Shown here: positions 16,605-25,527 of the stretch, in pieces
Numbering within the stretch: the first letter of the stretch is position 1
How the letters are laid out: each line of letters opens with the position of its first letter
Source of the DNA: Motiliproteus sp.
Lineage (GTDB): Bacteria; Pseudomonadota; Gammaproteobacteria; Pseudomonadales; Balneatricaceae
Length of the DNA: 64,000 bases
Direction of reading: 5' to 3'
NCBI GenBank assembly: GCA_047633175.1
Contig: JBLIEQ010000014.1
Coordinates: forward strand, 24,843-88,842
Translations under genes and position numbers: made by a program
The notes under the pieces: generated by a model
Seen by the model: the letters and a program-made list of their open reading frames with translations, nothing else
What the model was told of the DNA's origin: nothing
The model's database searches: none

Positions 16605-17114
16605 CTAGGTCATCACTTTCATGTTGTTGTTTCTATCCCTGCTTTGACGAATCAGCGCATCACTGGCAACGCCAGGCCGCGTTTTCGCCAGCCGGTCGTA
16701 GAGCAGCACATTGACCGTGGCTGCGAGGTTCAGACAGCCGATGGTCGGGATATATACGACCGCATCGGCGCGATCGATCAGCGCCTGGTCAATAGATCCA
16801 TCTTCGGGACCAAAGATATAAAAGGCATGCTCAGGGTGTTGAAAATCTGGCAGCGGTGTAGCACCCTCTACCAGCTCGACACAGACCACCCTCATCGGTA
16901 CGCTGATGTCCGGCAGTAAAGCGTCGACCCCCAGCAGAGGTATCTCGTCGCTGGCCCTGTGGGTATCGGTCGAAAAACGGGCTGCCCGATCGTAACGCAT
17001 CCCGGTATAGAACACCGCGTCAACCCTGAAGCATCCTGCCGCCCGCATCACCGCACCGACATTGGTAGGACTTTTGGGATTGATCAGACCAATATGGACT
17101 GTCGTTGCTTGCAT
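16605..17114 (-). CDS. SpoU/TrmH-family RNA 2'-O-methyltransferase
   Basis: 169 aa with SPOUT motifs NVGAVMRAA, YIFGPEDGSI and IPT.GCLNLAATVNVLLY. Confidence 0.85.
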   Translation of the reverse strand: MQATTVHIGLINPKSPTNVGAVMRAAGCFRVDAVFYTGMRYDRAARFSTDTHRASDEIPLLGVDALLPDISVPMRVVCVELVEGATPLPDFQHPEHAFYIFGPEDGSIDQALIDRADAVVYIPTIGCLNLAATVNVLLYDRLAKTRPGVASDALIRQSRDRNNNMKVMT

Positions 17115-17563
17115 GTATAAGGCTCATAAGTAGATTCAAGCTCCCCAGCCCAGATGGGTGTCTGAGGTCGATTGCGGAGCAGATGTGTCTGCTGCCACCC
17201 CCTTGATGAAGGTGATCGTTCAGGATGCCGGCCGGTTGTGACTGCATTCAGGGCCGCTGTACGGCTACCCGGGAGCACCTGAATAGCATTGCTGGAGTAC
17301 ACATTGTTTTGTTGTCTGCCCGGCTAACACTGGTTAGTATACCGCATGTTAAAAATATATTGATGACATCTGCACCGGGTCCGATCAGCGAATCATCCCG
17401 ACCTAAGAACTCCAGGTTCGTTTTAATCAGTGAATAAAATTCATTAGTTAACACCGGCACTTAAAAATAGCCATCCTGGTTGAGCAGAAAAATAGATGTA
17501 ACTTTATTTGGTCGTTAGAAAGGCACCGCTGATAGAGTACTACCATTAAGCAATCGATAGCTG

Positions 17564-18565
17564 GTGAACAAAGTGATAAATGTAAAAATTAAAATGTTAA
17601 TTGTTAGCTTGCTGGCCGCTAATTCTCTGTACGCCAGCGCCAGCGAATATGACAATATTAAAATATTGATAAACGATGGGCGTTCAAAAAACGCAATGGC
17701 ATCAATCGATCGATTATTGGAAAACAATCAGGCGGACAAACGCGCCCTGTTGCTTAAAGGTTATTTACTACACTCGACCGAAAAGCTTGATCAGGCGCAA
17801 CGGGTGTATGAAAGGCTTATTCAACTCGACCCCAACATGCCCGAAACATACAACAACCTCGGAGTACTGTTCGCAGAAAAAGGCGACAAGGAAAATGCGA
17901 CAAGAATATTGATCAGCACCTTTGATACGAACCCTGCCTATGCGGCGGCCTATAGTAATCTAAGAGGCATATTTAACGAAATAGCCGCAAACACCTATCG
18001 GGAAATATTAAAGGGCGGAGAGGGATCCTCAGTCCAGTCCACATTCAAACTAACCCTGTTAAAGGATTCTGAATTTTTAGCGGCTGAGTCGACCGCAATT
18101 GAAAATTTGGCGCTAGCCGCTTTAAACGAAAAGGAATCAAGCGAACCAACACCCGTAACGCCTAAACCAGTGCCAACTGCAATAGCAACAACACCTATAG
18201 TAACTCCAGACGTCCAGCCTAAGACAGATACCCGTGGAATAATTGACTTAATTACTAACTGGTCGCTCGCCTGGTCTTCTCAAAATCCGGATCTCTATTT
18301 AAGCTATTATCAGGATAACGCTATAATTGAACCCGGAATTTCTCGCGCTCGCTGGGAAAAAAATCGACGCAGCCGAATCCTGTCACCTGAATACATTCAG
18401 GTAACAATAGATACGCTGGACGTTAGCTTAGAGAATACAGAGTCCGCTACGGCGAGTTTCAAGCAGACTTACCGCGCTTCAAATTATCAGGACGTCGTCT
18501 TCAAGAAAATGACTTTTATAAGAAGTGGCGAAGACTGGAAAATACTACAAGAACAAGCCCTATAA
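17564..18565 (+). CDS. secreted TPR-repeat protein with Pro/Thr linker and C-terminal NTF2-like module
   Basis: The order is a signal peptide (...SLYASA), TPR repeats (LLKGYLLHSTEKLDQAQRVYERLIQLDPNMPETYNNLGVLF...), the linker EPTPVTPKPVPTAIATTPIVTP, and a C-terminal W..AW...(D/N)...YL..Y...W...R...I...F.Q.Y.S..YQD..(F/L)KK......W.I module. Confidence 0.8.
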   Translation: MNKVINVKIKMLIVSLLAANSLYASASEYDNIKILINDGRSKNAMASIDRLLENNQADKRALLLKGYLLHSTEKLDQAQRVYERLIQLDPNMPETYNNLGVLFAEKGDKENATRILISTFDTNPAYAAAYSNLRGIFNEIAANTYREILKGGEGSSVQSTFKLTLLKDSEFLAAESTAIENLALAALNEKESSEPTPVTPKPVPTAIATTPIVTPDVQPKTDTRGIIDLITNWSLAWSSQNPDLYLSYYQDNAIIEPGISRARWEKNRRSRILSPEYIQVTIDTLDVSLENTESATASFKQTYRASNYQDVVFKKMTFIRSGEDWKILQEQAL

Positions 18566-18579
18566 AGGTATATTGACGC

Positions 18580-18599
18580 CGCACAGGTAACGCTGTGCG
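18580..18599. terminator. hairpin between convergent genes (possible bidirectional terminator, no U-tract)
   Basis: CGCACAG-GTAACG-CTGTGCG. Confidence 0.35.
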
Positions 18600-18632
18600 T
18601 ACGCCACTATCCGCTTCAGCTAATATCGACTT

Positions 18633-19910
18633 CTATAACTTTATAAGTTGAATGTTTGTTTCTCTGACAATAAGCCATTTTTCATTCTCTTTCTCGAGCA
18701 TCAATTTTTTTAACGTTTTATCCTGATAGTCGGAAGATTCATAGCTAAGCCAAAATTCGATCTCGGCATGGGAGGCAGTAGCTTGAACTGTATTGACATG
18801 GGTAATGGACAGTTTTATCCAGTCTGGTTCTGATACTCGTAGCGCTCGAATTTCAGACCAGCGCTCTAGGGTCATCCTATCCTGAGGGGAAAACTGGCTG
18901 GAGTAGGTGGCGAGATACTTATTAACATCCTGTTGTTGCCACGCCATTTCCCATTGGGCGATGGCCTCGGCAAGTGGACCCATAGCAGCCTTCTGGGTCT
19001 CCGTTACCACTGAGATACTCGGAGTAACGCTGCGTTGCGCTTCGGCGTCTCCTGAGTTTAAGGCTGATTCCATTGTTATGGAGGGTCGCAGATAACTAAC
19101 TAACAACAACCCGACGACTAAAATCGGCATAATAACACTTAACGTAAGCAGGGCCTTTTTTTGATCGAGCCGGGGCTTGAACGTACCATTCTCTCTCAGC
19201 AAAACTCTTAGCTCTTTTTTGGTGACAAGATTATTACCGGCCAGCGTGGCTATGATCGCCAGAGACTGAGGTTTACCTTTACTGATTGAATACGCGTACT
19301 GCGCCGCTTTAACGCTGAGCCTGATCTGGCTCGCTTCATGGTTGATAAAATCAAGCCACTGTTGCCTTGTGATCTTAGCCAGTCTTAAGCTCTGGGTAAC
19401 TCGCTGCACAAAGCCATAACAACGCGGGTGATTCAAGAGTCTATCCAGTGACTGCTCACCAAAAAGGACCACCCGTACCAGCTGCTGATCGGTATCCTGC
19501 AGATTGGTTAAAATACGAATATGCGCTAATACTTCGGGAGCCAATTGATGGGCATCATCAAAAAACAAAACCAGATTTTTGTTTTCCCCTTCGTTTTCCT
19601 CTTTATCATCAAAAAGAAATTTCGACAAACTAGCTACAAAATCATTCTCTACGCTAATATCAAGTTGCTTTATGATGGCATCATCAAGGTCGTCAATCGA
19701 CATATCAGCCCGCGGAAAAAAAACCACATTATCATATTTATTTTCAAGTTCCATTTGTAATTGCAAAAAAAGCGTTGTCTTTCCAATCTGTGGATCACCG
19801 ATTACTTTAACAACACCTTCACGAAATAAAAGCGCCTGTTTTATTTGTTCACATGTTTTTTCATGCGGTCTTAAGTTAATAAAATAGTCTCTATTTTCTT
19901 GCATCGTCAT
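18633..19910 (-). CDS. ExeA/GspA-like AAA (AAA_22-type) ATPase, single TM, periplasmic NTF2-like C-terminal module (paralog 1)
   Basis: Walker A is GDPQIGKTT and the Walker B-like stretch is LVLFFDDAH. A TM helix LLTLSVIMPILVVGLLLVSYL follows, then a C-terminal module shared with three other proteins in the island. Its start overlaps the upstream stop as ATGA. Confidence 0.85.
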   Translation of the reverse strand: MTMQENRDYFINLRPHEKTCEQIKQALLFREGVVKVIGDPQIGKTTLFLQLQMELENKYDNVVFFPRADMSIDDLDDAIIKQLDISVENDFVASLSKFLFDDKEENEGENKNLVLFFDDAHQLAPEVLAHIRILTNLQDTDQQLVRVVLFGEQSLDRLLNHPRCYGFVQRVTQSLRLAKITRQQWLDFINHEASQIRLSVKAAQYAYSISKGKPQSLAIIATLAGNNLVTKKELRVLLRENGTFKPRLDQKKALLTLSVIMPILVVGLLLVSYLRPSITMESALNSGDAEAQRSVTPSISVVTETQKAAMGPLAEAIAQWEMAWQQQDVNKYLATYSSQFSPQDRMTLERWSEIRALRVSEPDWIKLSITHVNTVQATASHAEIEFWLSYESSDYQDKTLKKLMLEKENEKWLIVRETNIQLIKL

Positions 19911-21358
19911 AATTCATCCAGACTTAAGAAAAACTTGGCTATCTTTTTATTATCCCGTTCAGCATTAATGGTATATAACTTACCGAGACCCTTGTATGAA
20001 AAACGTTGCAGTAATTGTCGACTAGTGACTGAGTAGCCTCTGTCTTCGCCGGAGTTACCATTTTTGCTACCCACAAAACCCACTAAATTAACTTTTGATG
20101 CGCCACCCTTCGGGTCTACATAATCTATAAGAAGAAGTCGATCGGTTGACAACAAACTGAGCGTTTCTCCAAGTTCAAGTCGCCGCTCTTTATCGTTCAG
20201 TCTTATTTTCAGATAAGCGGCAGTCTGCACCAGGTCAGCCAACGGGCCCTGCTCAGGGTTTCTTACCTTTACAAAGATCCGACCACATAAATACTGGTCT
20301 TTCAAAACACGGATCGACGTGGCATCAGCCAAAAGAAAAGATTTTCCGATATCATTAAGACTGCCTATCTTTTCTATATCAACTACTACTCCGCGCTGAT
20401 AATTAGTATAAGCCTGAAGTACCTCCAACGTATCGCCTTTGTTCAACTCAATAGTTTCACCGTCATGATAAGCGACTGCACGGGAATCGTTGATTGAAAC
20501 AAGCATATGAGACAATTGGGGCTTAAGGACAGACTGTAGATTCTGTTCCTGTTGAATATCAAACTCATCCATAAAAGCGTTGACCATCATGGTTTGATAA
20601 CTTACTTTCAAATCCAGTGACTGGATATTTTTCGAGGTTTCTATACCATAAGATTCAATACCATGCTGATAGAGGGCATAGAAAGTAGCCGATTGTTTTT
20701 GTTCTTTGTGAACAGAGTTGGACGCCTTGGTTCGCGTATTCTTAAATTTAAGTTTGTGATCGTTAATCTGTATATTCTTATTAACGAGCGCCACCACTTT
20801 CTGAGCCCTTTTTTCGAGGTTCAGTGTTACGCCTTGCTGATTCGTAAATTCGGCTCGGTCCGCAATGACGGCCTGCCCCCATCTTCTAGGATTTCGTAAC
20901 TCGCTGATTGTCTCTGGGGAATAGAAACCATAGCCATCATGTAAATTGAGTAACACATCACTTTTCGCGATCAATTTTTTGAGAACTTCAACGATATCTT
21001 TTTCATATATATGTTGATGACCGGATTCATCCAAGCCATCCATTGGCGTATTGAAATTCCGATTCATATCATCGTTGATGCCTCTAATATTATTGACTAT
21101 TGCAGGCATATTAGCCCGGGGCACTACGATAAGAGTCCCTTTGCGAAGGCGTGTATCCGCAAAGATATCTGCGGTGAGATAACCTCCGGGCTCATTATGC
21201 ATTCCACCGATTATGAGCATGGTCTTACCGGGCAGTTCACCTTCAATATGATAGACATGGAGTTCGTGATCGGTATTTTCAAAGTGGCTAGTAATAGTAG
21301 TCTGCGACATCGCCTGGCCGCTTAACACAAGAAGAAATACACACAAGACTTTAATCAT
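19907..21358 (-). CDS. secreted Csd4/Pgp1-like (M14-superfamily) peptidoglycan carboxypeptidase
   Basis: A signal peptide is present. The motifs GGMHNEPGG, DMNRNF, LIAKSDVLLNLHDGYGFY, NPRRWGQAVIAD, ATFYA and ETSK match, block by block, my recollection of H. pylori Csd4. Confidence 0.75.
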   Translation of the reverse strand: MIKVLCVFLLVLSGQAMSQTTITSHFENTDHELHVYHIEGELPGKTMLIIGGMHNEPGGYLTADIFADTRLRKGTLIVVPRANMPAIVNNIRGINDDMNRNFNTPMDGLDESGHQHIYEKDIVEVLKKLIAKSDVLLNLHDGYGFYSPETISELRNPRRWGQAVIADRAEFTNQQGVTLNLEKRAQKVVALVNKNIQINDHKLKFKNTRTKASNSVHKEQKQSATFYALYQHGIESYGIETSKNIQSLDLKVSYQTMMVNAFMDEFDIQQEQNLQSVLKPQLSHMLVSINDSRAVAYHDGETIELNKGDTLEVLQAYTNYQRGVVVDIEKIGSLNDIGKSFLLADATSIRVLKDQYLCGRIFVKVRNPEQGPLADLVQTAAYLKIRLNDKERRLELGETLSLLSTDRLLLIDYVDPKGGASKVNLVGFVGSKNGNSGEDRGYSVTSRQLLQRFSYKGLGKLYTINAERDNKKIAKFFLSLDEL

Positions 21359-22594
21359 TCAAATCTTACCCGAAGAGGGCGCCCCTTCAAAAATAATTCT
21401 CCATTTATCGCCTTCTTTTTTCCAGTACTGTCTTTTAGTATCTTTTCCATTGAAATTATTACTCATGTAGTGCTGTTTAAAGGTCACTACAAGAATATTT
21501 CCCTGACCTGGATAGGAGAAGAAACTGAGATTTTTTAGATCAATATTAACATAAGACTTGGCTTTATTTATTCTTATTTTTTTGGCCGACCAGGCGATAT
21601 AATCTTCCCGACCATTATCGAAGTCATGCGAGTAGTTTGACAGATAGTCCTGTGTATCGAGACTTTCCCAGCTTTTCTTCCAATCATTAACAAGCTGACT
21701 AAAGGGTTGCTGCTGCGCTAACCAATCTGATTCCGTAAGCCACTCTATGTTCTCTCCAATAATTACCGGTGTCGAGTGAATATCGATGATTGAATCGAGT
21801 TGTGCAAAATCATAATTGGTTAAAGACACACAACCTTCGCTGGCAAGGGGGGCACGGCTATACGTATCCGTCGGTGAGCCATGCAACCAGATGCCGTTGC
21901 CAGTCTTCTGCTGCTGAGCATCTAATGCATTGGGATAGTTCAACGGCAAAGCGCCGGATCCATATTTATCAGGTAAATTTTTTGCTGCCAGCCTTGTGGT
22001 GACAAAATAGACGCCTACCGGTGTTTTCTTGTCACCACTGATAAACTTTTCTGCGCCCTCGCTGCCACTCGACGCGTAAAAATCTTTCACTAAAACGGGC
22101 TTTCCCGACTTATTCTCAAACAGATACAACCGAGATTTGCTTAGATCTACGACGATGGCATGCGATTGGCCGTCTGCCATTTTTACTAAACTTTTGGGGA
22201 TGCTGCCGTTTTTTGGCTTCTGGGTTCGATACTGACCGCGGACCACTGCTTCTTGACGTAACTCTTCGACTAGACTCGACCTTATTGGAACGGCAGCGGC
22301 AAAGGACTCAATCGGATTGGCCTGCGCACTAACTAGATCGGCAAAGATAACTTGCGCCAGTTTAAACTCGGGCGTGTGCTGAGTGATCGCCAGCAAGCGC
22401 TCCATGGCTTCTTCTAGTCGGTTTTGATCAATGTCCTCAATAGCCGCAAGGAAATCACCCTCCACCGTAGAGAGGCTCACCGCGTAACTGATGCTTGTTG
22501 TAAACGGAAATGCGATTAAAAACATCCCGATTGAAAATAGTGGCGTCCACTTCATAAGTCGTTGATAACCACCTAGGTTTTTGCTATTTACCAT
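21359..22594 (-). CDS. secreted YkuD-fold L,D-transpeptidase-family enzyme (Csd6/YafK-like) with C-terminal NTF2-like module
   Basis: A signal-like N-terminus and a helical region precede KTPVGVYFV...LPLNYPNALD...GNGIWLHGSP...SEGCVSL, which contains the catalytic His and Cys. The NTF2-like tail reads W..SW...D...YL..Y. The stop directly abuts the carboxypeptidase ATG. Confidence 0.85.
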   Translation of the reverse strand: MVNSKNLGGYQRLMKWTPLFSIGMFLIAFPFTTSISYAVSLSTVEGDFLAAIEDIDQNRLEEAMERLLAITQHTPEFKLAQVIFADLVSAQANPIESFAAAVPIRSSLVEELRQEAVVRGQYRTQKPKNGSIPKSLVKMADGQSHAIVVDLSKSRLYLFENKSGKPVLVKDFYASSGSEGAEKFISGDKKTPVGVYFVTTRLAAKNLPDKYGSGALPLNYPNALDAQQQKTGNGIWLHGSPTDTYSRAPLASEGCVSLTNYDFAQLDSIIDIHSTPVIIGENIEWLTESDWLAQQQPFSQLVNDWKKSWESLDTQDYLSNYSHDFDNGREDYIAWSAKKIRINKAKSYVNIDLKNLSFFSYPGQGNILVVTFKQHYMSNNFNGKDTKRQYWKKEGDKWRIIFEGAPSSGKI

Positions 22595-22669
22595 TATAGT
22601 AATTGGCTAATTTTTGAGTTGTAAATAATACCCGATCGGTCCGCTTGATGCTATGAGTTCGCCTTAATG

Positions 22670-23290
22670 ATTAGTGTTCGGCGTCAACTATCTTGGCCGG
22701 TCGCGCGACAACTATGATGGCCGGTTAGGCGTCGACACTTTTTAGTCTGTTTCGCTTGTTTTATATGGTGCAGTTTCCGATAGTCTCGCCCTCTAGTTCG
22801 GTAATTGTCTTGTAGTGTATGAGTCGATCAATGGCTGCGACCGTCATCATGCTGTCCGGGAAAATATAATCCCATGCGCTGAAGGGTTGGTTGGCCGTGA
22901 TGATGAGGCTGCCGCTTTCATAGCGATGGGCGATGAACTCAAGCGGACCCGGGTTTCGGCATCCATTTTTTTCACATAGCCAATGTCATCAATAATGATG
23001 AGGCGGTATTTATCCAGCCGTGTCATAGCTGTCATCAAGTCAAGGTCCCGCATTGCTTCCTGCAAGTGCTGAACCAGCACGATGGCTGAAAAGAGTTTGC
23101 AGCGGATGCCTTGCTCGATAGCCTAGGACCCAGCGTCGTTGCAACATGGGCTTCCCTGTACGACTAGGCCCTAGCAAAAGGATGTTGTCGGCATTGTGTG
23201 CCCATTGAATATCCTGTTGCAACTTGGCCAGAATACACCCTTGATTCGGCTTGCTAAAACGGTAGTGATCAAGTAGTTTTGCTAATTCTA
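22670..23290 (-). mobile_element. IS21-family remnant: one terminus with two ~17-bp direct repeats plus a frameshifted istB; no istA
   Basis: CAACTATCTTGGCCGGT (22685-22701) and CAACTATGATGGCCGGT (22709-22725) resemble the multiple terminal repeats of IS21-family ends. IstB-like peptides lie next to them. Confidence 0.65.
22761..23290 (-). pseudogene. istB: istB (IS21 helper ATPase) pseudogene, frameshifted
   Basis: The fragments NILLLGPSRTGK, LDKYRLIIIDDIGYV, ANQPFSAWDYIFPDSMMTVAAIDRLIH and ...ELEGE fall in different frames. The last two come from my own translation. Confidence 0.7.
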
Positions 23291-23295
23291 ATTGT

Positions 23296-23440
23296 CTTCC
23301 CGTTTACGGTAAACTTCTGTTATCCATAAAATTATCTACACGGAGATAGGTTCCTGACTGCTATTGAGGACATTGATCAAAACCGGCTGAAAGAGGTGTA
23401 TTGAGCGATAACTGGCAATCACTCCATACAGACATACACG
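23296..23440 (+). pseudogene. remnant of a second, oppositely oriented YkuD-enzyme gene (N-terminal region only)
   Basis: The plus-strand translation KLSTGDRFLTAIEDIDQNRLKE compares with SLSTVEGDFLAAIEDIDQNRLEE in the intact gene. GCTATTGAGGACATTGATCAAAACCG is identical over 26 nt. Stops and frameshifts are present. Confidence 0.8.
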
Positions 23441-23917
23441 CTGGTTTTGAACAACGACTCGCGTGCAGTTGCTTACCCTGATGGCCAAACTATTGAATTG
23501 AACTAAGGCGGTACTTTAAAGCACTCCCCACTTACACTAATTTTTAACGTGTTCTTATTTTAGAACAGAACGTGGATCTAGCGGATGTCGCTTCGACCCG
23601 CATTTTTAAGGCCCGTATTACGTGGCTGGATTGAGATACAGATCACTCCGTACCTAAAAATAAAGCTGGAGGATAAATGTTGGTGATTTTTTAACTTTGT
23701 ATAAATACGGAGTCTATTTCCAACCACAGCCTCCTTGTTGTTGACTATGTGGGCTTACAGATGAAACATCGTGGATAGCAAAAAAGCAATACTGACGAAG
23801 ACTGACGGAGCTTAGTCACTAGTCGCCAATTGATATGGTTTTTATTAAAGGGTCTAGAGGTTAAACTTACGCTGAACAACAAAATTATTGCAAGTTTTTA
23901 AGTCTAAATGGATGATG
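23441..23917 (+). pseudogene. remnant of a second carboxypeptidase gene (C-terminal ~40 percent, decayed)
   Basis: TLVLNNDSRAVAYPDGQTIELN*GGTLK compares with HMLVSINDSRAVAYHDGETIELNKGDTLE, and YLKIKLEDK with YLKIRLNDKE. The DNA stays collinear with the 3' end of the intact gene right up to the ATPase start. Confidence 0.8.
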
Positions 23918-25339
23918 ACGATGAAAGAAAATAGGGATTTTTTTATTAGTTTCAAACCACATGAACAAGCATGCGAACAAATAAAGCAGACACTTTTACT
24001 TCCTGAAGGCGGCATTAAAGTTACCGGTGATGAGAATTCTGGAAAAACAACACTTTTTTTACAGCTGCAAATGGATCTTGACAGTGATCGTTATGATTTG
24101 GCTTGTTTCCCAAAGGCCGACATATCGATTGAAGAGCTTAACAAAGCCATTATAAAAAAACTCGACATTAACTCAGGAAAAGATTTTTCAACCAGCTTAT
24201 TGAAAGTACTGATCGAAAATAAAACAAAAAATAAACAACTGGTTTTATTGTTTGATGATGCGCATCAATTGACGCCTGACATATTAGCGTATGTACGTAT
24301 TTTGACCAACATCCAAGATACTACTCAACTGCTGGTACGGGTGATCTTTTTTGGCGAACAGTCGCTAGATAGACTGCTGTATCCTTCTAATTGCTATGGC
24401 TTTTCCCAACGAGTTACTCAGAGACCAAGCGAGGCTAAGATCACCAAGCAACAGTGGCTCAACGTTATCAGCCAGGAAAACAGCCAGATCAGACTCAGCC
24501 TTAAAGCGGCACACTACGCCTATTCAATCAGTAAAGGGATACCTAAATCGTTAGCCATAATCGCTACTCTGGTCGACAAGCAACAGTTTCACCCAACGAC
24601 CAAAAAAGATCTTAAAGCTTTACTGAGAGACAATGCCATTTTCAAAACACGGTCCAAACTAAAGACGACCCTGATTATATTAGGTGTATCAACGTCTATT
24701 CTTTTCAACGGATGGTTGTTTATTATTTATATACAACCTTCCCAGAAAACAGAATCAGTATTCGACTTCAGTCATAAAAAAGAGCCCCTGGAAAATACAG
24801 AAAATGGCGACGCAACGCAACACACCGCCGCTCTCGCTCCCGTTCCCGTTCCCGCTCCCGCTCCCGTTCCCGTTCCCGCTCCCGTTCCCGTTCCCGCTCC
24901 CGCTCCCGCTCCCGCTCATATTAAAAATATTCCGATGGAAGCAAAAACTGCAAACCAGAAAAAAGTTTTTGATGATATTGAAAATGCCATCGCCTACTGG
25001 GTAATAGCGTGGCAACAACAAGATGTTGATAATTATCTAGCCGCCTATTCCAGCCACTTTATACCCACTGATAAGATGACTCTTGACCACTGGTCTGAAA
25101 TCAGAGAGCAGCGAGTATCAACGCCCGATTGGATAAAACTGTCCATCACCGGAGTCAACAGGGTTAAAGTATCAGCCACCCATGCGGAGATAGAATTTTG
25201 GCTTTGGTATCAATCATCTGACTACCAGGATAAAACCTTAAAAACATTGATTCTCGAAAAAGAGAATAATGAGTGGCAAATTGTTAGAGAAATAAGTCTT
25301 AATATTCAAGAGCTTAAAGGCGATGCCATACAAGGCTAA
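23915..25339 (+). CDS. ExeA/GspA-like AAA ATPase, single TM, (A/V)P-repeat linker, periplasmic NTF2-like module (paralog 2)
   Basis: The start MTMKENRDFF is chosen by analogy with paralog 1 (MTMQENRDYF). Walker A is GDENSGKTT and the Walker B-like stretch is LVLLFDDAH. About two-thirds of positions are identical to paralog 1 by eye. Confidence 0.85.
   Translation: MTMKENRDFFISFKPHEQACEQIKQTLLLPEGGIKVTGDENSGKTTLFLQLQMDLDSDRYDLACFPKADISIEELNKAIIKKLDINSGKDFSTSLLKVLIENKTKNKQLVLLFDDAHQLTPDILAYVRILTNIQDTTQLLVRVIFFGEQSLDRLLYPSNCYGFSQRVTQRPSEAKITKQQWLNVISQENSQIRLSLKAAHYAYSISKGIPKSLAIIATLVDKQQFHPTTKKDLKALLRDNAIFKTRSKLKTTLIILGVSTSILFNGWLFIIYIQPSQKTESVFDFSHKKEPLENTENGDATQHTAALAPVPVPAPAPVPVPAPVPVPAPAPAPAHIKNIPMEAKTANQKKVFDDIENAIAYWVIAWQQQDVDNYLAAYSSHFIPTDKMTLDHWSEIREQRVSTPDWIKLSITGVNRVKVSATHAEIEFWLWYQSSDYQDKTLKTLILEKENNEWQIVREISLNIQELKGDAIQG
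24836..24916 (+). repeat. in-frame GCTCCC/GTTCCC hexanucleotide array encoding (A/V)P x13.5
   Basis: 81 nt encoding APVPVPAPAPVPVPAPVPVPAPAPAPA, inside the paralog 2 periplasmic linker. Confidence 0.95.
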
Positions 25340-25527
25340 CAGGGCGCTCCACACAGCAATTTCTGCAGGACTTCACTATTAATTCTAGAGTGTTAGTTCT
25401 TGTATAAATTTACGGGCTTTATCATTAATGAGCAGCCATTTCTGGGTTAGACTGCACAGCTATGCCCAGTGCGTGCTGCGGGCTGCACTAAATGATTCTC
25501 GATCATCCTCCTGAAGAAGCAGAAATT

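Follow-up and report, generated by a model that had tools for sequence, protein, structure and literature searches.

A predicted peptidoglycan stem-peptide trimming operon with a membrane-anchored AAA+ partner in a marine gammaproteobacterium

The window that we analysed, a 64,000-nucleotide stretch of a Motiliproteus sp. genome (assembly GCA_047633175.1, contig JBLIEQ010000014.1), carries three adjacent genes predicted to encode an LD-carboxypeptidase (gene 1), a second carboxypeptidase (gene 2) and an AAA+ membrane protein (gene 3), with a gene for a TPR protein converging on them (Table 1). The first-pass annotation had described the three as packed without spacing, which the sequence bears out: the stop codon of gene 1 (21359–21361) abuts the ATG of gene 2 (21356–21358) in AAG ATT TGA ATG ATT AAA, and the stop of gene 2 and the start of gene 3 overlap as ATGA (19907–19910) in GAA TTA TGA. 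The first of these junctions is abutting or 3 nt wide in five relatives too, and the M99 stop and ATPase start overlap by 4 or 8 nt in four of the five. Because the same junctions and gene order recur in relatives, the three-gene arrangement is not due to chance. Promoter-like and terminator-like sites at the operon were not above shuffled expectation.

Two start sites deserve comment. Gene 1 may begin at the ATG at 22555, giving a product of 398 aa with its signal peptide at the N terminus; its homologues, at 398–399 aa, match that length. The public gene call for the M99 gene begins 16 codons downstream (467 aa), whereas the signal peptide of gene 2 comes from the longer 483-aa open reading frame (ORF). 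Purifying selection acts on all four genes of the cassette, with dN/dS values against the closest relative of 0.084 (gene 1), 0.08 (gene 2), 0.28 (gene 3) and 0.21 (TPR gene); gene 3 evolves about three times faster than both enzymes.

Table 1. Features of the cassette and its surroundings (positions in the window)
Feature	Position	Strand	Description
Gene 1	21359..22594	-	411-aa ORF; predicted YkuD + Cds6_C LD-carboxypeptidase
Gene 2	19907..21358	-	483-aa ORF; predicted Peptidase_M99 carboxypeptidase with signal peptide
Gene 3	18633..19910	-	425-aa ORF; predicted bitopic inner-membrane AAA+ protein
TPR gene	17564..18565	+	Convergent to gene 3; secreted, Cds6_C at C-terminal end
Low-GC island	17000..25500		GC ~0.39–0.47 against 0.53–0.59 in flanks (composition profile)
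Second AAA+-TM-Cds6_C paralogue	23915..25339	+	Intact ORF (Pfam, alignment)
Pseudogene relics of second operon copy	23276..23916	+	tblastn; inverted repeats I4, I5
Relic of YkuD aa 22–63	23276–23398	+	tblastn
Relic of M99 aa 283–312	23432–23521	+	tblastn
Relic of M99 aa 403–482	23716–23916	+	tblastn; runs into paralogue ATG

The gene 1 product consists of a YkuD domain (aa 145–279; PF03734, 1.6e-16) followed by a Cds6_C NTF2 domain (aa 301–403; PF24125, 1.5e-26), in agreement with the YkuD fold and NTF2-like tail noticed in the first-pass annotation. Its best match in the PDB is Bd1075 (7O21, 7e-36), followed by Csd6 (4XZZ, 8e-21) and Pgp2 (6XJ6, 5e-20). The protein was checked for loss of the catalytic His and Cys, and both are kept (His238 and Cys255); the Cys+2 residue is Ser, where LD-transpeptidases have Arg. 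Domain order, catalytic pair, a non-Arg residue at Cys+2 and conserved NTF2 pocket residues are thus shared with Bd1075, Csd6 and Pgp2, whereas the N-terminal region (aa ~30–130) differs from that of Bd1075 and the Bd1075-specific C-terminal Trp303 is missing. The gene also differs from those systems in sharing an operon with an M99 enzyme gene; csd6 and csd4 are not known to be linked in Helicobacter pylori, nor are pgp2 and pgp1 in Campylobacter jejuni.

The gene 2 product matches Peptidase_M99 (1.1e-31) and, by phmmer, Csd4 (~1e-25). Its AF2 model (pLDDT 83) aligns with Csd4 over ~486 columns and all three domains (Foldseek, 4e-29; next best match 3.6e-10), with an identity of only ~20% in the structural alignment, and so has the three-domain architecture of Csd4 (PDB 4WCK/4Q6M). 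The Csd4/Pgp1-like assignment made earlier is upheld, and a check for membership of a non-peptidoglycan M14 clade placed the 483-aa protein in the Csd4/M99 clade instead. The metal and catalytic positions H54, E56, H140 and E240 align to Q46, E49, H128 and E222 of Csd4; E56, H140 and E240 do not vary among 24 homologues, and within the clade H54 is conserved too. Csd4/Pgp1 and the gene 2 product have in common the catalytic Glu, the second His ligand and the Asn-Arg substrate motif, whereas Csd4 uses an atypical Gln as its first metal ligand (GIQGDEPGG), where the protein here has His in a motif one residue shorter (GGMH-NEPGG). The unusual H-x-E spacing of this motif counts against the predicted enzyme role. 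Gene 2 occurs in Gammaproteobacteria, whereas Csd4/Pgp1 were described as mainly delta/epsilon in the founding papers (PMC3310797, PMC3310789).

The gene 3 product comprises an NTPase domain (aa 10–245) with a Walker A motif at aa 38–45 and a Walker B motif at aa 114–119 (VLFFDD), a transmembrane (TM) helix (~aa 248–272), a disordered linker (274–303) and a Cds6_C NTF2 domain (aa 304–424). Pfam matches to AAA_22 (5.8e-15) and Cds6_C (7e-17) support the earlier description of an AAA_22 domain joined by a TM helix to the same NTF2 module as in gene 1. The AF2 model is confident (pLDDT 85); in Foldseek its N-domain matches Cdc6/ORC, RFC, RuvB and MuB, and its C-domain superposes on the NTF2 domain of Bd1075 with an rmsd of 2.1 Å. 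The predicted topology resembles that of ExeA/GspA of Aeromonas, with an AAA_22-type P-loop domain in the cytoplasm, a single TM helix and a domain for wall binding in the periplasm, although the last is Cds6_C rather than the PG_binding_1 of ExeA. Homology of the NTPase domain to ExeA/GspA, MshM and the PEP-CTERM-associated ATPase TIGR03015 is detectable, so the proposed ExeA kinship stands, but as a distant one: gene 3 scores 60.6 bits against TIGR03015 (1.5e-16), far under the cut-off of 324.5 bits.

Gene 3 belongs to an undescribed family of AAA+-TM-Cds6_C proteins with ~100 representative clusters, the profile of which is also matched by classical ExeA proteins. Walker A is kept in 67–69 of 70 members. 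Walker B reads DD or DN in 58 of the 70, against DE in ExeA, and the catalytic Glu is mostly absent; no member has the sensor arginine of ExeA, the Arg of GxPR being replaced, usually by Gly, and the N-terminal FGL...PF motif of ExeA is absent from these proteins. Given the atypical Walker B and the missing sensor arginine, these proteins may hydrolyse ATP slowly or not at all, and their N-domain may have no more than a scaffolding role. The nucleotide-controlled scaffold suggested in the first-pass annotation is a tentative idea: the conserved Walker A fits it, but the changes at the catalytic Glu and sensor arginine do not.

The ExeA likeness suggests another function, in which AAA+-TM-Cds6_C proteins would help, in the manner of ExeA/GspA/MshM, to assemble a machine that spans the envelope (a secretin, pilus or exopolysaccharide exporter), and the enzymes would open or mark the wall locally for it rather than shape the cell. 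Besides the distant homology, some family members carry the source annotations 'MshM' or 'ExeA', and one fusion protein (P0245), in which an ExeA-type NTPase and TM helix are joined to Cds6_C and a YkuD domain that appears to have lost its Cys, is encoded a few kilobases from pilin-like N_methyl genes. In two genomes, moreover, cellulose-synthesis genes or a GH8 gene precede the cassette. We nevertheless consider this function quite unlikely, with the ExeA motifs missing, the TIGR03015 score so low and no secretin, pilus, T2SS or exporter gene within ~15 kb in the window or inside any of nine cassettes. ExeA has a GspB/secretin partner, whereas the neighbours of gene 3 are wall hydrolases and no ExeB/GspB-like partner was seen. 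A functional parallel may lie in the shape complex of H. pylori, in which Csd5 and Csd7 serve as membrane scaffolds. Both are bitopic inner-membrane proteins with a periplasmic wall-binding domain that organise shape-determining peptidoglycan hydrolases; a sequence relationship with gene 3 is not expected, and Csd5 has no NTPase domain.

Four proteins of the island share the Cds6_C module, which Pfam finds in the gene 1 product, the gene 3 product, a second ATPase paralogue and the TPR protein; the last matches Pfam TPR families and PF24125 (5.6e-13), with its NTF2 domain at aa 227–331. Each of the four modules has an identical or conservatively replaced residue at the positions of the Pgp2 pocket residues Y233, K257, K307 and E324, three of the four also have an equivalent of F242, and the pocket positions are invariant or near-invariant throughout the ATPase family. 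In Pgp2 this pocket binds peptidoglycan (PMC8038945) and in Bd1075 it directs the enzyme to one cell face (PMC8938487); by similarity, each Cds6_C module here would bind peptidoglycan.

Across several phyla, an LD-carboxypeptidase gene lies directly upstream of the M99 gene in 66 of 72 informative loci. The first-pass annotation had expected the three genes to be co-conserved, which holds in one gammaproteobacterial clade, where the four-gene cassette occurs in 9/9 distinct genomes, with flanks of at least three different kinds; elsewhere the pair mostly occurs without the ATPase, which is absent downstream in 63 of 67 loci having downstream sequence. The TPR-Cds6_C gene, convergent to the ATPase gene in L001, L003, L004, L009, L092 and L093, is a fourth conserved member, and only in this clade do the ATPase and a separate TPR-Cds6_C gene stand within the operon context. 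In the operons of other clades their place is taken by a bitopic membrane protein or a TPR fusion, and the role of Csd5 and Csd7 also resembles the one suggested for the bitopic 'mid-gene' of delta-type operons. Conversely, some AAA+-TM-Cds6_C proteins are orphans, or lie beside a short AAA_22 gene, far from M99 and YkuD genes. The P0245 fusion, with an ExeA-type NTPase, YkuD and Cds6_C in one chain, speaks for a link between the ATPase and trimming enzymes, but the apparent loss of its YkuD Cys speaks against it. As the pair occurs without the ATPase and the ATPase family without the enzymes, the ATPase is an accessory rather than a core part.

The cassette in this marine gammaproteobacterium is horizontally acquired. 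It lies on a low-GC island between a SpoU-type methyltransferase gene and minCDE, together with an IstB-like insertion-sequence fragment. The intact paralogue on the island shares 60% amino-acid identity with gene 3 (dN/dS between the two, 0.29) and has a Pro-Ala-Pro-Val repeat linker; inverted repeats I1–I3 relate to it, and I4 and I5 to the pseudogene relics, which lie in operon order and are each interrupted by in-frame stops and shortened by large deletions. A second, divergently oriented operon copy has thus decayed, leaving the paralogue as its only intact gene. The first-pass annotation had described neither this copy and its paralogue nor the Cds6_C end of the TPR protein and the low GC of the locus. 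With such a history, and with the faster evolution of gene 3 and its weak Pfam matches to nSTAND and NB-ARC models, the ATPase could have come along as a passenger, or as a defence-type STAND NTPase, its position being a neutral by-product of mobile elements and its function uncoupled from that of the enzymes. This is very improbable because all nine genomes keep the gene order and the overlapping junctions while ATPase identity falls to 28–34%. When cassette and flank GC were compared in the window, L003 and Alteromonadaceae-type metagenome-assembled genomes, the two were equal in the last, so the cassette is resident there; the ATPase also has its Cds6_C module in common with the gene 1 enzyme, and PADLOC defence models gave no match.

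Mobility would also suit a general peptidoglycan-editing or maintenance module without a role in shape, serving stress tolerance, control of LD-crosslinking or lipoprotein attachment, or recycling, with the ATPase and TPR protein merely co-localised wall-binding proteins. The pair is found in many phyla with rod-like or undocumented shapes, and YkuD-fold enzymes have diverse wall functions, the one here weakly matching LdtF/DpaA/YafK. However, the trimming pair gives Helicobacter, Campylobacter and Bdellovibrio their helical or curved shape, and the closest characterised relatives, Bd1075, Csd6, Pgp2 and Csd4, all determine cell shape (PMC8938487); Csd4 homologues of >50% similarity were reported only from organisms with a curved or helical form (PMC3310797). 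Four proteins, moreover, carry dedicated targeting modules, which points to a spatially restricted action rather than to editing in bulk, and we regard a purely general function as rather unlikely.

We think it probable, though far from certain, that the cassette trims stem peptides in two steps, with a membrane-anchored AAA+ protein as an accessory peculiar to the clade and with a TPR protein, and that it acts in wall remodelling. By homology, the gene 1 product would convert tetrapeptide stems to tripeptides in the periplasm, and the gene 2 product, as a DL-carboxypeptidase with the activity described for Pgp1 (PMC3310789), would convert these to dipeptides there, much as Pgp2 provides the Pgp1 substrate according to the title of reference 21 in PMC8938487. 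In the gammaproteobacterial clade, gene 3 would be co-transcribed with the pair and probably translationally coupled to it. The Cds6_C modules would bring the LD-carboxypeptidase, the AAA+ proteins and the TPR protein to the same peptidoglycan feature, with the TPR protein bridging partners and the AAA+ protein acting as an ExeA-like oligomerising nucleotide switch that tethers the trimming site to the inner membrane, which would limit trimming to certain places or times. The enzymes belong to a known type; the ATPase is a new partner, with a putative role in ATP-dependent control. The output would be a local loss of cross-linkable stems, which could lead to cell curvature or another local remodelling of the wall.

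The three tightly packed genes examined here encode a YkuD-type LD-carboxypeptidase (gene 1), a Peptidase_M99 protein (gene 2) and a membrane ATPase (gene 3), and together with a convergent gene for a TPR protein they form a cassette. An ORF check placed the reading frames exactly where the first-pass annotation had put them, and the junctions described there are seen in the sequence: the TGA of gene 1 abuts the ATG of gene 2, and the gene 2 stop and gene 3 start share an ATGA. In five relatives, the gene 1 stop and gene 2 ATG are abutting or separated by 3 nt, and in 4 of these 5 the M99 stop and ATPase start overlap by 4 or 8 nt. The true start of gene 1 is ambiguous and may be the internal ATG at 22555 rather than that at 22594; the former gives a protein of 398 aa with an N-terminal signal peptide, the latter one of 411 aa, and homologs are 398–399 aa long. 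A promoter-like site at 22625-22596 would be compatible with initiation at 22555, although promoter-like and terminator-like sites as a whole occur in our scan no more often than in shuffled sequence. In a public gene call the M99 gene starts 16 codons late, giving a protein of 467 aa that has lost its signal peptide.

Coordinates of the cassette genes, the second copy and related proteins at other loci (window positions unless a locus is named)
Feature	Position	Strand	Basis or remarks
Gene 1, YkuD-Cds6_C	21359..22594	minus	ORF, 411 aa
Gene 2, Peptidase_M99	19907..21358	minus	ORF, 483 aa
Gene 3, AAA+-TM-Cds6_C	18633..19910	minus	ORF, 425 aa
Secreted TPR protein, Cds6_C at C-terminal end	17564..18565		convergent to gene 3; PF24125 5.6e-13
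Second AAA+-TM-Cds6_C paralog, intact	23915..25339	plus	60% identical to gene 3
YkuD relic, aa 22-63	23276-23398	plus	tblastn
M99 relic, aa 283-312	23432-23521	plus	tblastn
M99 relic, aa 403-482	23716-23916	plus	tblastn; continues into paralog ATG
Delta-type mid-gene	L044 8935-9951		also L016, L020, L022, L032, L038, L082 and ~58 more loci
TPR-YkuD-Cds6_C fusion	L006 6031-8004		also L010, L012, L013, L014

Gene 2 belongs to the clade of Csd4, a shape-linked peptidoglycan carboxypeptidase, as the first-pass annotation had suggested, and not to another M14 or AstE clade, according to Pfam, PDB sequence and Foldseek searches. Its Pfam match to Peptidase_M99 (1.1e-31) scores 110.8 bits against a cut-off of 27, and Csd4 entries are the sole PDB family matched by its sequence (~1e-25). 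The AlphaFold model (pLDDT 83) matches Csd4 over all three domains (4e-29, ~486 columns), the next-best Foldseek match being succinylglutamate desuccinylase at 3.6e-10. As in Csd4, two C-terminal beta domains are present (model strands at aa 282-480), and there is a weak, below-cut-off match to PF17129 (4.8e-4). Residues E49, H128 and the catalytic Glu E222 of Csd4 align with E56, H140 and E240, none of which varies among 24 homologs; the putative first metal ligand, Q46 in Csd4, is His54. The motif around the putative metal site, GGMH-NEPGG, has one residue fewer than GIQGDEPGG of Csd4 or GIHGNEPGG of other M99 proteins, so that aa 48-56 (window 21190-21216) show H-x-E rather than H/Q-x-x-E spacing. 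The shorter motif is strictly kept in every M99 protein that shares 42% or more identity with the query.

The reading of gene 1 as a YkuD enzyme with an NTF2-like tail is borne out by Pfam matches to YkuD (PF03734, 1.6e-16) and to the NTF2-like module Cds6_C (PF24125, 1.5e-26). By sequence, the nearest solved structure is 7O21 (7e-36), followed by Csd6 (4XZZ) and Pgp2 (6XJ6). 7O21 is Bd1075, a Bdellovibrio LD-carboxypeptidase that produces cell curvature and whose NTF2 domain directs the enzyme to the convex cell face (PMC8938487). The catalytic residues, the loss of which would have counted against the first-pass annotation, are retained as His238 and Cys255, and alignments checked by index pair them with Bd1075 H141/C156 and Pgp2 C174. 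Two residues after the Cys, where most LD-transpeptidases carry Arg (PMC8938487), gene 1 has Ser257 (EGC-V-S), whereas Csd6 and Pgp2 have Ala and Bd1075 has Val. In common with the Csd6/Pgp2/Bd1075 group, the C-terminal Cds6_C module has equivalents of all five pocket residues of Pgp2. From its sequence, gene 1 is predicted to cleave the meso-Dap–D-Ala bond in tetrapeptide stems, as this group does.

The Cds6_C module recurs in gene 3, its paralog and the TPR protein. In Pgp2, the pocket of this module binds peptidoglycan, and its residues Y233, F242, K257, K307 and E324 are required for helical shape (PMC8038945). Most of these positions are matched in the other cassette proteins bearing the module, and they are invariant or near-invariant columns of the entire ATPase family. 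Recent shuffling of modules within the window was considered and rejected: the YkuD module is just ~18-22% identical to the other three, and the two ATPase paralogs are the only close pair. Such low identity indicates old, separately maintained copies.

Equivalents of the Pgp2 pocket residues in the cassette proteins, from alignments; those of E324 rest on an invariant C-terminal Glu, because the Pgp2 alignments end before E324
Pgp2	ATPase	LD-carboxypeptidase	TPR protein
Y233	Y332	Y317	Y245
F242	F340	F325	A253 (not conserved)
K257	R355	K339	R268
K307	K401	K387	K314
E324	E417	E403	E330

For gene 3, Pfam (AAA_22, 5.8e-15; Cds6_C, 7e-17) and the structural model agree with the proposed AAA_22-type NTPase, TM helix and NTF2 module in common with gene 1. 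In the model (pLDDT 85), an AAA+ domain with lid (aa 10-245) is followed by a long hydrophobic helix (aa 248-272), a linker predicted to be disordered (aa 274-303) and an alpha+beta cone (aa 304-424). Foldseek groups the N-domain with Cdc6/ORC, RFC, RuvB and MuB, and its superposition of the C-domain on the NTF2 domain of Bd1075 gives 2.1 A. Lys/Arg residues ahead of the TM helix predict, by the positive-inside rule, that the NTPase faces the cytoplasm and the NTF2 domain the periplasm. The layout is that of ExeA/GspA, with an AAA_22 P-loop domain, a single TM helix and a predicted periplasmic C-terminal domain, but gene 3 has no match to the periplasmic PG_binding_1 domain (PF01471) of those proteins and carries Cds6_C in its place. 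The Walker B and sensor motifs also differ, being FFDDAH and GKPQ in gene 3 and IDEAQ and GTPRLIN in classical ExeA. Against TIGR03015, the model for the XrtA/PEP-CTERM system-associated ATPase, gene 3 scores 60.6 bits with a cut-off of 324.5. The ExeA-like layout could indicate a secretion or pilus assembly factor; we found no GspB, secretin or pilus genes in the window or in nine cassettes, and this role was unsupported by any neighbourhood examined.

Conservation of the operon was surveyed in 80 loci anchored on M99 from GTDB species representatives (Desulfobacterota, Nitrospirota, Latescibacterota, Gemmatimonadota and gammaproteobacterial MAGs), annotated with HMMs built from the window domains. 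A YkuD-Cds6_C gene lies directly upstream of M99 in 66 of 72 informative loci; these 72 include 2 in which a contig end leaves only a Cds6_C fragment upstream, and exclude 8 loci with less than 2.5 kb of upstream sequence. Of 67 loci that extend far enough downstream, 4 have an AAA+-Cds6_C gene directly after M99; all four have an M99 at least 55% identical to the query and fall in one clade. After metagenome contigs were added, the survey covered nine distinct genomes of this clade (the window, L003, L004, L007, L008, L009, L092, L093 and the partial L001), with two more cases implied. The first-pass annotation had treated the three genes as a unit; their co-conservation holds inside this gammaproteobacterial clade, where the ATPase immediately follows M99 in 9/9 genomes, and fails elsewhere, where the enzyme pair mostly occurs without it. 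The ATPase is dispensable in most lineages.

Within the clade, the convergent TPR-Cds6_C gene is also present in genomes with enough sequence, and the cassette occupies at least three distinct flanking contexts. Directly upstream of it are cellulose-synthesis-type genes (BcsB, GH8 and BcsC) at L092 5-5103 and a GH8 gene at L093 4569-5669. Between the ATPase and TPR genes lie ORFs without a Pfam match at L004 11137-11787 (216 aa) and L092 10032-11210 (392 aa), and a 443-codon stop-to-stop ORF 3′ of the ATPase at L007 3831-5159 has Cds6_C as its sole match.

Other lineages carry different accessories. In delta-type operons (65 loci), a conserved, unannotated bitopic membrane protein of ~200-260 aa, with a TM helix, a coiled coil and a beta-rich C-domain, is encoded between the two enzyme genes; it was absent from the gamma-type and Nitrospirota-type operons examined. 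In a Nitrospirota-type clade, the YkuD-Cds6_C enzyme adjoining M99 bears an N-terminal TPR region (~660-710 aa in total), a fusion that ties the TPR accessory to the LD-carboxypeptidase. The survey thus identifies the enzyme pair as a conserved core to which a membrane or TPR accessory has been added lineage by lineage.

The window also holds the remains of a second operon copy. Upstream of an intact ATPase paralog (dN/dS against gene 3, 0.29), three relics of the enzyme genes keep the operon order, each with stop codons and large deletions. Together with inverted repeats, they indicate that a second, divergent copy decayed and left the ATPase alone intact. The paralog linker contains a tandem repeat with a 12-nt period (24816-24923) encoding a periplasmic Pro-Ala-Pro-Val run. 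A short minus-strand ORF (22847-23080) in the gap between the divergent units matches IstB_IS21 weakly (E 0.0015, short of the Pfam cut-off) and is probably what is left of an IS21-family element.

Both copies lie in a low-GC island (~17.0-25.5 kb; GC ~0.43 versus 0.53-0.57 in the flanks) bordered by a SpoU-type methyltransferase gene and minCDE. An anti-phage defence island was considered and rejected: no PADLOC model matched except for one weak TPR-driven match. The nearest relative, the Motiliproteus sp. MAG L003 (Oceanospirillaceae, Gammaproteobacteria), has the cassette at the identical chromosomal site with the same GC contrast and without the second copy; its enzymes are 86% identical to those of the window (dS ~0.85). 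In Alteromonadaceae-type MAGs the GC of the cassette equals that of its flanks (0.45-0.49 versus 0.41-0.47), and the cassette therefore probably reached the Motiliproteus-like lineage by horizontal transfer from a donor of this type. The dN/dS values between the window and L003 are 0.084 (LD-carboxypeptidase), 0.079 (M99), 0.279 (ATPase) and 0.210 (TPR protein). All four genes are constrained, and the accessories evolve ~3 times faster than the enzymes; clade-wide, ATPase identity falls to 28-34% and M99 identity is still 58-61%.

Word-index homolog searches with the ATPase, as a single sequence or a 78-sequence profile, gave almost no useful matches, and an exhaustive profile search was used. 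It returned an AAA+-TM-Cds6_C family with 99 representatives, clustered at 50% identity, at E<1e-30, known in public records only by the generic names 'AAA family ATPase', 'MshM' or 'ExeA'. Both AAA_22 and Cds6_C are present in 70 of the 78 best profile matches, and 102 of the top 151 (the best 150 plus P0002) have an NTPase, a TM helix directly after it and one or two Cds6_C modules. The NTPase portion of the profile is matched by classical ExeA proteins, which end in a PG_binding_1 domain. Among 70 family members, the Walker A G/GK is kept in 67-69 and the Walker B Asp in 69. The position after this Asp, which normally holds the catalytic Glu in AAA+ proteins, has D in 47 members, N in 11 and E in 8, and the ExeA GxPR sensor-Arg position is Gly in 57 and Arg in none. 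This pattern suggests that nucleotide binding is kept and hydrolysis is slow or altered, and that the family ATPases may be switches or scaffolds rather than motors.

One protein from this search, P0245 (L089 8001-9893), is a 630-aa fusion of an ExeA-type NTPase, TM helix, YkuD domain and Cds6_C; its YkuD Cys is apparently replaced (VGIAVGN), and a few kb upstream of it are pilin-like N_methyl genes. Divergent members are not beside trimming enzymes: P0124 is an orphan, and P0151 and P0154 each form a conserved pair with a short AAA_22 gene that precedes them. A pair of this kind marks a separate subfamily (L090 5517-7925 and L091 4287-6722), in which a ~308-aa AAA_22 gene precedes an AAA_22-TM-Cds6_C gene among housekeeping neighbours, with no M99 or YkuD gene seen nearby. 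Periplasmic linkers across the family range from ~30 to more than 200 aa. The search also returned proteins of 838-1087 aa (P0134, P0150 and P0158) that carry four or five Cds6_C modules in tandem after an N-terminal TPR region, and others with two to four Cds6_C and otherwise no recognised domain.

Taken together, the domain-level reading of the three genes in the first-pass annotation was correct, and the enzyme assignments of genes 1 and 2 are strong. The best-supported interpretation of the cassette is a two-step stem-peptide trimming module with clade-specific AAA+ and TPR accessories, in which the Cds6_C modules would direct the enzyme, the membrane-anchored AAA+ protein and the TPR protein to one wall feature. 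Four findings support functional coupling of the ATPase: the long-term retention of the overlapping gene order, the Cds6_C module common to ATPase and enzyme, the P0245 fusion, and the fact that other clades have recruited membrane partners in parallel. How the ATPase acts we infer by analogy with ExeA and the membrane scaffolds of the Helicobacter shape complex. The core chemistry and enzyme families are known, genes 1 and 2 being added members. Our literature search, which covered few subscription journals and so is weak evidence of absence, found no earlier description of an operon that joins AAA+-TM-NTF2 and TPR-NTF2 proteins to the enzyme pair, or of the ATPase architecture.

In the founding papers, Csd4 and Pgp1 were mainly delta/epsilon proteins (PMC3310797, PMC3310789); the survey shows that the LD-/DL-carboxypeptidase operon is widespread well beyond the Epsilon- and Deltaproteobacteria. 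How wall-trimming enzymes are confined to one cell side or zone is an open question in morphogenesis, and no mechanism is known by which a protein would be directed to one lateral wall (PMC8938487). The cassette offers a natural, compact test case: four co-inherited proteins, three with the NTF2 module for which peptidoglycan binding and a role in localisation have been demonstrated, one of which three is predicted to span the inner membrane with a nucleotide-binding domain. We tentatively raise the possibility, which we consider rather doubtful, that AAA+-TM-Cds6_C proteins form a class of nucleotide switches in the inner membrane that has so far gone unrecognised, and that their nucleotide-dependent oligomerisation in the cytoplasm would set where in the sacculus the periplasmic LD- and DL-carboxypeptidases act. 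Retention of the second paralog would then hint at hetero-oligomeric assemblies and, if true, such a switch would provide a mechanistic basis for the asymmetric targeting of shape-determining wall hydrolases.
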